The position numbers and the translations under genes are program-made. 1,567 bases of DNA from Escherichia coli. GTDB lineage: Bacteria; Pseudomonadota; Gammaproteobacteria; Enterobacterales; Enterobacteriaceae. How positions within the stretch are numbered: position 1 is the first letter of the stretch; each line of letters begins with the position of its first letter. Location of the stretch: assembly GCF_003334385.1 (NCBI RefSeq), contig NZ_QOWN01000111.1; one strand, 5' to 3'. Under the pieces are notes generated by a model. That model saw only the letters and a list, made by a program, of their open reading frames with translations. It was not told the origin of the DNA and did no database searches. Positions 1,193 through 1,233 of the stretch are shown in pieces.

Positions 1193-1233
1193 AAAACCCC
1201 GTTTGTTGGCAGCAAGCGGGGTTTTGTGTTTTC
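1193..1233 (+). terminator. Intrinsic (rho-independent) terminator-like hairpin, possibly bidirectional
   Basis: Arm AAAACCCCGTTTGTT (1193-1207) pairs with AGCAAGCGGGGTTTT (1211-1225), including a perfect CCCCG/CGGGG core and two G-U pairs, around a 3-7 nt loop. It is followed by GTGTTTTCTG (T-rich). An A-tract upstream (TAAAAGTAAAAA, 1185-1196) would give a U-tract on the minus strand as well. Confidence 0.6.

Follow-up and report, generated by a model that had tools for sequence, protein, structure and literature searches.

The analysed stretch of DNA (1,567 nucleotides from Escherichia coli, hereafter the window) comes from a lambdoid E. coli prophage, of which it covers the lysis region. 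The 351 nt used for searching (1095-1445) are 100% identical to E. coli strain EC2 (NZ_CP058571.1). The genes and features are listed below with their window coordinates, strand and the basis of each assignment.

1..150, + strand: 3' part of a class II (S21/pinholin-type) holin gene (RefSeq 'class II holin family protein'; locus L001 2841-3056, corresponding to window -65..150)
155..505, + strand: YdfR-family gene, 116 aa (ORF; RefSeq 'YdfR family protein')
569..1102, + strand: lysozyme gene R, 177 aa (ORF; RefSeq 'lysozyme')
1103-1438, + strand: R-Rz spacer, 336 nt (from the end of R to the start of Rz)
1103..1192, + strand: R 3'UTR, termed 'sp1', 90 nt, made of a conserved block, a variable patch and a conserved block (R-anchored IMG/VR loci)
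1183..1196, + strand: A-rich run AATAAAAGTAAAAA, 5' of the stem, its last four A pairing with the first four U of the tail (sequence, fold)
1193..1207, + strand: hairpin 5' arm AAAACCCCGTTTGTT (pairing scan, RNA fold, shuffles)
1208..1210, + strand: hairpin loop GGC (pairing scan)
1211..1225, + strand: hairpin 3' arm AGCAAGCGGGGTTTT (pairing scan, RNA fold)
1222..1235, + strand: U-rich tract TTTTGTGTTTTCTG, expected release site of + strand transcripts (sequence; Carafa-type T = 4.18)
1250..1288, + strand: Shine-Dalgarno sequence AAGGGAGAAA (1250-1259) and 8-codon mini-ORF, from ATG 1262 to TGA 1286-1288 (sequence)
1285..1437, + strand: gene for a small single-pass membrane protein, 50 aa from GTG, the first cargo gene (ORF)
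1292..1321, - strand: sigma-70 promoter-like site, TGGACA, 18 nt, TATACT (consensus scan, 10/12 matches)
1439..1567, + strand: 5' part of Rz (i-spanin), running past the window end (RefSeq 'lysis protein'; locus L001 4345-4812, starting at window 1439)

The product of the YdfR-family gene matches phrog_406 and phrog_2091 (E about 1e-62 to 1e-64) and that of R matches the endolysin family phrog_7 (E 3e-60). From its N-terminal sequence and from general knowledge, R is taken by us to be a SAR-type endolysin of the phage 21 R kind. Upstream of the window genes, the same strand carries DUF826, DUF1378, a sialate esterase gene, tRNA genes and a methyltransferase gene. A Q-type antitermination gene is located about 7 kb upstream of the hairpin, also on the same strand and with all intervening genes in + orientation, while Rz and then the terminase genes, all on the + strand as well, follow downstream. 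Within about 1.7 kb of the hairpin in both directions, all annotated genes are likewise on the + strand. The hairpin is therefore situated inside a Q-dependent late operon, with the antitermination gene before it and late genes beyond it. At least two further strong + strand terminator-like hairpins were found at gene boundaries of the same operon (locus L001 8-31 and 2775-2803); serial internal terminators thus seem to be routine and look like normal design.

The Shine-Dalgarno sequence of the mini-ORF is found at a fixed distance 3' of the hairpin, which is kept in related loci, and the stop codon of the mini-ORF shares bases with the GTG that opens the next gene (GTGA). The 50-aa product of the latter aligns with phrog_4493 (residues 1-50 against profile positions 1-54 of 56, E 1.4e-24), and its RefSeq annotation comprises only 37 aa, starting from ATG 1324. 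The stop codon of this gene is located 1 nt before the ATG of Rz, which suggests translational coupling and gives it the look of a lysis-cassette gene and not of a stand-alone toxin. No promoter for the 50-aa ORF itself was found in the scan of the window.

Hairpin anatomy and strand asymmetry

The hairpin stem is made of 15 uninterrupted pairs (1193-1225), of which six are G-C and two are G·U, around a CCCCG/CGGGG core. From the base upwards, four A-U pairs are followed by five G-C pairs at the base of the core and by a mixed upper part containing the two G·U pairs. The U-rich tail TTTTGTGTTTT spans 1222-1232 with its first four T within the extended stem, and 9 of the 11 positions of UUUUGUGUUUU, the sequence immediately behind the stem, are U. 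The GC-cored hairpin with an A-tract upstream and a T-tract downstream that had been noticed in the preliminary description is thereby confirmed, and its placement between the lysozyme and Rz genes was correct, R covering 569-1102 and Rz starting at 1439. The hairpin had been positioned accurately as well, with an end point at 1233 that slightly clips a T-tract extending to 1235.

The hairpin starts 91 nt past the R stop codon and is non-coding: in the related loci that were compared, indels in the variable patch of the 3'UTR break all frames, so that no conserved one runs through it. The + strand RNA of 1185-1240 folds at -21.8 kcal/mol (z = -4.0), a value equalled by none of 200 shuffles, and the 25-nt hairpin core taken separately has a ΔG of -15.6 on this strand. 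When both strands were scanned, a terminator-like hairpin with at least 15 uninterrupted pairs was obtained in only 1 of 1000 dinucleotide-preserving shuffles of the window. An attenuator-like alternative pairing with the 3'UTR was considered and rejected, the hairpin being intact in both the MFE and the centroid folds of 1103-1240. The + strand therefore displays the usual attributes of an intrinsic terminator: a GC-rich stem-loop, an adjacent 3' U-tract and a non-coding site after a gene of the same strand. The earlier suggestion of a strong terminator-like hairpin within a late lysis operon is supported by this anatomy, by its position and by the Q gene some 7 kb upstream.

The hairpin is clearly stronger on the + strand, the strand of R, and would be expected to work mainly there. 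The - strand RNA of the same interval (1185-1240) folds at -14.2 kcal/mol (z = -1.9, with 8 of 200 shuffles as good), as the two G·U pairs of the stem become A·C mismatches on this strand. The d'Aubenton-Carafa-type d-score, computed here with modern energies and intended for comparative use only, amounts to 19.4 on the + strand and 0.2 on the - strand. The natural variation of the stem follows the same direction. Among 29 natural variants the + fold is more stable in all but one, the exception having a disrupted stem, and the common allele of the H-19B class retains -15.9 on the + strand versus -9.4 on the - strand. One-sided changes were observed at three stem positions (G-C to G·U, U-A to U·G and U·G to U-A) and all of them keep the + strand pair. 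Bidirectional action, which had been put forward as a potential property of the element, is consequently a weak reading, because the + fold is the stronger one (-21.8 vs -14.2) and the variants preserve + strand pairing through wobble. The part of that proposal which stands is the presence of U-tracts on both strands; the two folds are however not of comparable stability, the Carafa-type score falls from 19.4 to 0.2, and no convergent transcription units meet at the site, all neighbours being on the + strand.

The hairpin might also end an antisense RNA of about 95 nt, initiated at the promoter-like site 1321->1292 inside the 5' end of the small gene; such an RNA would cover the ribosome-binding site of this gene and act in the manner of a type I antitoxin or as a silencer of the cargo and Rz. 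A transcript from this site, if real, would indeed meet the hairpin after about 95 nt, the site scores 10/12 at a suitable distance, and the upstream A-run supplies a - strand U-tract (UUUUUACUUUUAUU) behind a hairpin still worth -14.2 kcal/mol. Moreover, the - strand RNA 1300->1180 folds as three hairpins (z = -3.8), the putative target is a small, hydrophobic product (phrog_4493), and the unrelated small gene of H-19B type carries TGCTAAAAT, which can be read as an extended -10-like element on the - strand at a similar place. Promoter-like sites occur however at chance frequency in the window (2 found vs 1.2 ± 1.1 expected), and conserved codons (K-Y-K and D-F-S) account for the -10 hexamers, that of the site at 1321->1292 being the complement of the K-Y-K codons of the small ORF. 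The two A·C mismatches, the z of only -1.9 with a Carafa-type score of 0.2, and the drop to -9.4 in the H-19B-class allele (-15.9 being kept on the + strand) all speak against termination in this direction, as does the + orientation of all flanking genes. In addition, no orphan Hfq peak is present on either strand at the identical Sakai Sp4 copy described below, and the small gene, whose stop precedes the ATG of Rz by 1 nt, has the appearance of a member of the lysis cassette. This scenario is considered highly improbable.

Distribution, cargo slot and sequence constraint

Using a query of 91 nt centred on the hairpin, 3,195 occurrences were found in 1,970 of the 5,426 complete E. coli genomes, a single genome having as many as 7. 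The ten places listed carry no annotated feature at the hairpin. Because about 36% of the complete genomes carry it unannotated, the hairpin is useful for annotation. It is also present in H-19B, GER2, the PhiR series, vB_EcoS isolates and many records of Stx-converting phages; GER2 and the PhiR series are records deposited as complete genomes or propagated isolates, and in GER2 a DNA-packaging gene is annotated downstream of the hairpin on the same strand. The GenBank records of H-19B, CP-1639 and 933W display no terminator feature at the site. An identical copy is located in prophage Sp4 of E. coli O157:H7 Sakai (NC_002695.2, 1,184,826-1,184,858). The stem core was present 138 times in 207 fetched loci, each time downstream of the same 90-nt segment behind R. 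The hairpin is therefore a locus-specific element, and a dispersed repeat of the REP or MITE type was ruled out.

For the surroundings of the hairpin, 80 IMG/VR loci were collected through the R protein; an unbiased set comprises 61 unique sequences. The sp1 segment (1103-1192) follows R in nearly all 80 loci, whatever comes next. In 40 of the 61 unique sequences (about two thirds, type A) it is followed by the hairpin of the window, whereas in 19 unique R-Rz spacers (about one third, type B) the hairpin is absent and the sequence switches exactly at the hairpin base, directly after ...AATAAAGT, to unrelated DNA leading to the antirepressor gene ant. Examples of type B are Sakai Sp6, Sp10 and Sp15 and phage 933W. 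Type A loci split again right behind the T-tract into several cargo classes, each opening with a strong Shine-Dalgarno sequence followed by a gene for a small single-pass membrane protein (phrog_4493/1115/3246, phrog_6632 or phrog_4906, all families of unknown function); some of them have additional cargo, for instance a methylase. The slot between R and Rz may contain small membrane-protein genes, ant, a KilA-N-like gene or a methylase, and the spacer length ranges from 0 to about 1.4 kb. In the compared loci the hairpin is the left edge of a variable and recombination-prone cargo slot, and forms a discrete module between two mosaic junctions.

The hairpin is dispensable in this phage family, because it is missing from about one third of the related R-Rz spacers (type B), and the Qin prophage of K-12, in which R overlaps Rz, has no spacer at all. 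The hairpin found in the ant loci, AGGCACCGTAATGGTGCC-TTTGTCATTT, was examined as an analogous terminator of type B and was dropped, its common allele folding too weakly. This structure corresponds to GGCACC-GTAAT-GRTGCC followed by TTTGTCATTT; its common Sakai allele (GATGCC) reaches -7.1 kcal/mol on the + strand, with z = +0.3 and a Carafa-type score of about zero. The weakness of this allele implies that a terminator is not universally maintained at the site. A rarer variant (loci L110 and L171) combines an outer CCCCGG/CCGGGG stem with another interior and folds at -22.3 kcal/mol (z = -3.5), its T-tract being interrupted.

Sequence constraint was estimated as nucleotide diversity among the 40 unique type A sequences of the R-anchored set, with the third codon positions of R as synonymous reference.

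R third codon positions (synonymous reference): 0.171
R first and second codon positions: 0.016
1103-1123, + strand, 3'UTR conserved block: 0.016
1124-1143, + strand, 3'UTR variable patch (20 nt): 0.241
1144-1192, + strand, 3'UTR conserved block: 0.042
1193..1207, hairpin 5' arm: 0.016
1208..1210, loop: 0.108
1211..1225, hairpin 3' arm: 0.063
Tail: 0.076
17 nt 3' of the tail: 0.30

The diversity of the stem is 3-10 times below that of the synonymous sites of R in the same sequences. The loop and its adjacent closing pairs are the most variable part of the hairpin, with variants GGCAG, GGCTG, GGCAC, GGCCG and GGTAG, and 93.9% of the cells are paired when the 23 distinct hairpin variants are considered. 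No two-sided (compensatory) change was detected among these 23 variants, and the shuffling controls were uninformative, the copies being too alike. No covariation-supported structure was found in the R 3'UTR (1103-1192) either. Parts of this 3'UTR vary far less than the synonymous sites of R. A coding origin of the conserved 3'UTR was rejected, since the candidate frames (ORFs 906-1187 on the + strand and 1045-1251 on the - strand) are broken by indels in the variable patch.

This patchwork of diversity has to be weighed against the idea that the hairpin terminates transcription and has no selected role. The element would then be a hitch-hiking relic, originally the 3' end of an S-R unit or of an inserted cargo module, which persists since Q-modified polymerase makes it harmless, and its uniformity would come from a recent spread of the R-3'UTR module. 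Its absence from type B spacers and from phages where R overlaps Rz, the mosaic junctions located exactly at both of its edges and the lack of covariation within the hairpin are in agreement with such an origin, and low diversity could indeed result from recent recombinational spread rather than from selection. On the other hand, the arms of the stem show 0.016 and 0.063 vs 0.171 at synonymous sites, while the patch 50 nt upstream (0.241) and the sequence downstream (0.30) vary freely, a pattern that is hard to attribute to young age alone; the few changes that affect the stem preserve + strand pairing. Selection on the hairpin and on parts of the 3'UTR accounts for the patchwork more readily than young age does, with different genealogies of the mosaic segments remaining an alternative cause. 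A relic devoid of selected role is therefore regarded as a rather unlikely explanation.

Proposed termination and Q read-through, and a possible RNA from the R 3'UTR

The preferred reading, to which a probability of about 0.6 is given, is that of a Rho-independent (intrinsic) + strand terminator which closes the 90-nt R 3'UTR, is overridden by Q and has an insulating role. The proposed mechanism can be briefly summarized as follows. When unmodified RNA polymerase transcribes the + strand, the GC-cored stem would form in the RNA and the UUUUGUGUUUU tract would free the transcript. In a lysogen, such transcripts could originate from leak-through at tR' or from the promoters of upstream cargo genes; they would end after R, and the cargo slot, Rz/Rz1 and the head and tail genes would not be entered. 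During lytic growth, Q-modified polymerase would ignore the hairpin and the whole late operon would still be expressed.

More than 20 kb of late genes are located 3' of the hairpin. No + strand promoter-like site was detected between the hairpin and Rz by the consensus scan of the window. This result, together with the Q gene upstream and the occurrence of the hairpin in phage genomes, indicates that the downstream genes need Q-modified polymerase. The dependence of Rz on Q-type read-through, one of the two possibilities initially raised, is supported by the same promoterless interval and by the location of Q about 7 kb upstream. Since the hairpin precedes the late genes in phage genomes, we infer that read-through must occur during the lytic cycle, and the hairpin could consequently act only on polymerase that has not been modified by Q. 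The ability of Q-modified polymerase to read through terminators is established in lambdoid phages and restated in PMC7547250, and Term-seq data on EHEC Sakai exist (PMC7547250). The insulating part of the reading is weakened by the location of the terminator after S and R, which would leave the lysogen unprotected from the lethal lysis genes.

The same terminator could also serve a different purpose: an RNA with a regulatory or stabilising function, made from the R 3'UTR (1144-1192 and the hairpin), might have its 3' end there. Such an RNA might be cut out of the S-R message by RNase E, or might shield this message from 3' exonucleases; it might also be a small RNA of Hfq type, the patch 1124-1143 giving allele-specific targets. 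The two conserved blocks (0.016 and 0.042 vs 0.171 at synonymous sites) flanking a hypervariable patch (0.241) are consistent with this possibility. So are five consecutive A-R-N triplets (AAU AAA AGU AAA AAC, 1183-1197) placed before a U-tailed terminator, the usual pair of features for Hfq binding. Small RNA families of the same region similarly possess a conserved 3' part and a variable 5' part, as described for AgvB and AsxR (PMC4104026) and for PasA (bioRxiv 10.64898/2026.05.13.724894). The segment 1144-1192 combines a diversity of 0.042, an A-R-N-rich block and a U-tailed terminator with the lack of covariation and of a defined seed. Several observations point in the opposite direction. 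No + strand promoter-like site is present in the 3' end of R or in its 3'UTR, and the latter displays no covariation-supported structure. The lytic cycle would be the main time of transcription, precisely when Q-modified polymerase should pass the hairpin. All Rfam families remained below threshold when the whole window was searched in E-value mode; the best scores over the hairpin were those of the rimP leader (24.8 bits vs 47) and RefA9 (21.3 vs 49), which are generic terminator matches. A full-text search of the accessible papers for the stem, on both strands and in DNA and RNA forms, returned no match.

The RNA was also looked for in published lists, those of EHEC Hfq-CRAC and EPEC RIL-seq, whose coverage does not extend to expression after prophage induction. 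It is absent from the EHEC Sakai Hfq-CRAC list, although this strain harbours an identical copy, and the EPEC RIL-seq list of novel sRNAs has nothing at the lysozyme 3'UTR. Neither the Sp4 copy nor the type B copies have any of the 64 orphan Hfq peaks of Sakai in their vicinity. The EcOnc Hfq-peak candidates were mapped in Sp3, Sp4, Sp6, Sp10, Sp15 and Sp17 and none of them falls in the R-Rz spacer: EcOnc10-12 (HnrS) are located downstream of Rz, and EcOnc33 and EcOnc52 at the 3' end of the esterase gene, and they were therefore discarded as RNAs of the hairpin. The discrete transcript and Hfq binding that define an Hfq-dependent sRNA were thus found neither by the promoter scan nor in the published lists.

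Known small RNAs of the region occupy other sites. According to Sakai coordinates, AgvB and AsxR directly follow the Q-proximal cargo, and HnrS is an opposite-strand RNA located past Rz. Flanking-gene context places PasA-D between the esterase gene and the holin, in antisense orientation, or near Q; the identity of the hairpin with the PasA/PasC terminator, suggested by the description of these genes as neighbours of the holin/lysozyme operon, was ruled out in this manner, PasA and PasC being antisense between the esterase gene and the holin. In the source prophage, a region resembling HnrS follows the hairpin at a distance of about 0.95 kb. A regulatory or stabilising RNA ending at the hairpin is, in our opinion, quite unlikely. 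A similarly low probability is assigned to the wider proposition that 3'UTR, patch and hairpin encode a multicopy Hfq-type sRNA, with targets set by the patch, in the manner of AgvB, AsxR and the Pas RNAs, or that the hairpin ends an antisense RNA silencing the small genes and Rz in lysogens.

Comparison with known systems

The hairpin resembles canonical E. coli intrinsic terminators in its GC-rich stem, its short loop, its 3' U-tract, the A-run that pairs with the first U residues and its non-coding site shortly past a stop codon. It differs from them by being internal to an operon whose essential late genes continue for more than 20 kb past it. The late operon of lambda is known to possess internal terminators that are overridden by Q. 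Among these systems, tR' of lambda, the terminator of the 6S RNA, is similarly an intrinsic terminator of the late strand placed downstream of PR' and Q, and the effect of the hairpin is expected to be conditional, like that of tR', on the absence of Q. Unlike tR', the hairpin is about 7 kb away from PR'/qut, between R and Rz, and the two elements have no sequence similarity. The transcript terminated at the Stx-phage counterpart of tR' is StxS, a documented sRNA (PMC7547250), whereas the RNA product of the hairpin is only putative.

A classic moron is equipped with a promoter of its own, and its terminator follows the gene. Like the boundaries of morons and modules in lambdoid phages, a concept of Juhala and Hendrix cited in PMC4104026, the hairpin marks a mosaic junction bordering interchangeable cargo; it is however situated upstream of this cargo, for which no promoter was found in the window. 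The late-region sRNAs of prophages (AgvB, AsxR, PasA-D, HnrS and StxS) belong to the same prophage family and region as the hairpin, and like it they are multicopy, are never annotated by pipelines and involve intrinsic terminators, at which their short transcripts end, but none of them maps between R and Rz. Bidirectional intrinsic terminators are known between convergent genes, and the palindromic stem flanked by an A-run and a T-run is common to them and to the hairpin. The latter departs from this model by the lack of a convergent gene pair, by a stem made asymmetric through its G·U pairs and by variants that degrade the - strand version.

The hairpin is thus most likely an intrinsic terminator of ordinary type, well conserved, unannotated and in late-operon orientation; it does not represent a novel type of element. 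Provided that it functions in the proposed way, it would be one of several internal stops that keep the late genes of Stx-type and related prophages strictly dependent on Q and that also separate cargo modules in lysogens. Knowledge of the hairpin helps in reading RNA-seq and Term-seq profiles of prophage late regions, and the current view of gene control in lambdoid phages is left unchanged. The residual novelty lies in the conserved lysozyme 3'UTR and in the small membrane-protein genes inserted between R and Rz.

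Membrane-protein genes and untranslated sequence between R and Rz

Genes for small single-pass membrane proteins form a variable tandem array in the spacer between the lysozyme gene R and Rz, as observed in the window, in the related loci L007, L008, L057, L066 and L110, and in others. The families represented in this array are phrog_4493/1115/3246, phrog_6632 and phrog_4906. The last gene of the array encodes a protein ending in ...IRWW and its stop codon lies 1 nt ahead of the Rz ATG. The copy found in the window (1285-1437) displays a full-length match to phrog_4493 over 50 aa counted from the GTG at 1285, and the RefSeq call of 37 aa, starting from the ATG at 1324, is therefore probably too short. 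The GTG start is itself overlapped by a very short reading frame:

Window 1262-1288: mini-ORF of 8 codons, overlapping the start of the 1285-1437 gene (GTGA)

In the 3'UTR of R, two blocks (1103-1123 and 1144-1192) vary 4-10 times less than the synonymous sites of R. They are separated by a hypervariable patch of 20 nt (1124-1143) for which at least four distinct alleles exist. Neither a promoter nor a reading frame nor a covarying structure that would account for this conservation pattern was found in the 3'UTR (1103-1192).

Hairpins and spacer arrangements in the late region

Besides the hairpin located between R and Rz, the late operon of the window includes two more strong terminator-like hairpins, given here in coordinates of L001, the source-prophage locus:

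L001 2775-2803 (window -131 to -103), + strand: terminator-like hairpin with a stem of 12 pairs, including 7 G-C, situated between the holin gene and DUF826 and followed by TTTGTTGTTG
L001 8-31 (about 2.9 kb upstream of the window), + strand: terminator-like hairpin immediately upstream of the sialate esterase gene

The type B spacers, which lead to the antirepressor gene ant, carry a tandem direct repeat of two copies of GCGCATCTCAC (L005 5410-5445 in Sakai prophage Sp10). This repeat, not present in the window, is placed directly 3' of the type B hairpin, about 120 nt upstream of ant, and could be an operator-like site. In Sakai Sp4 (L212, NC_002695.2 about 1,183,300-1,186,400), the cassette made up of holin, R, small ORF and Rz runs in the opposite orientation to the Q gene of Sp4 and is located past IS629 copies and pchA, so that it seems severed from its late promoter.

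RNA-related features in and near the lysis cassette

The lysis cassette also comprises the following gene:

Window 155-505: YdfR-family gene, between the holin and lysozyme genes

A weak Rfam match to GcvB (19.9 bits versus a cut-off of 42, E 0.1) covers window 392-562 on the - strand, with a core at 492-505. It contains an exact AUUAAGGUUGUGAU stretch, and the + strand therefore bears a CA-rich site complementary to the GcvB seed, AUCACAACCUUAAU, where the YdfR-family gene ends; this may well be a chance occurrence. For the YdfR of K-12, a 2026 paper (PMC13232886) reports binding to RNase E, in its catalytic N-terminal half, and co-purification with RNA.

Beyond the downstream end of the window, at a distance of about 0.95 kb from the R-Rz hairpin, L001 5083-5250 shares 96% identity with the HnrS sRNA (EcOnc11) region of Sakai prophage Sp10. 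HnrS belongs to the prophage sRNAs, lies opposite in orientation to the late genes, and has been reported as a repressor of hha (bioRxiv 10.1101/2025.11.27.690950).
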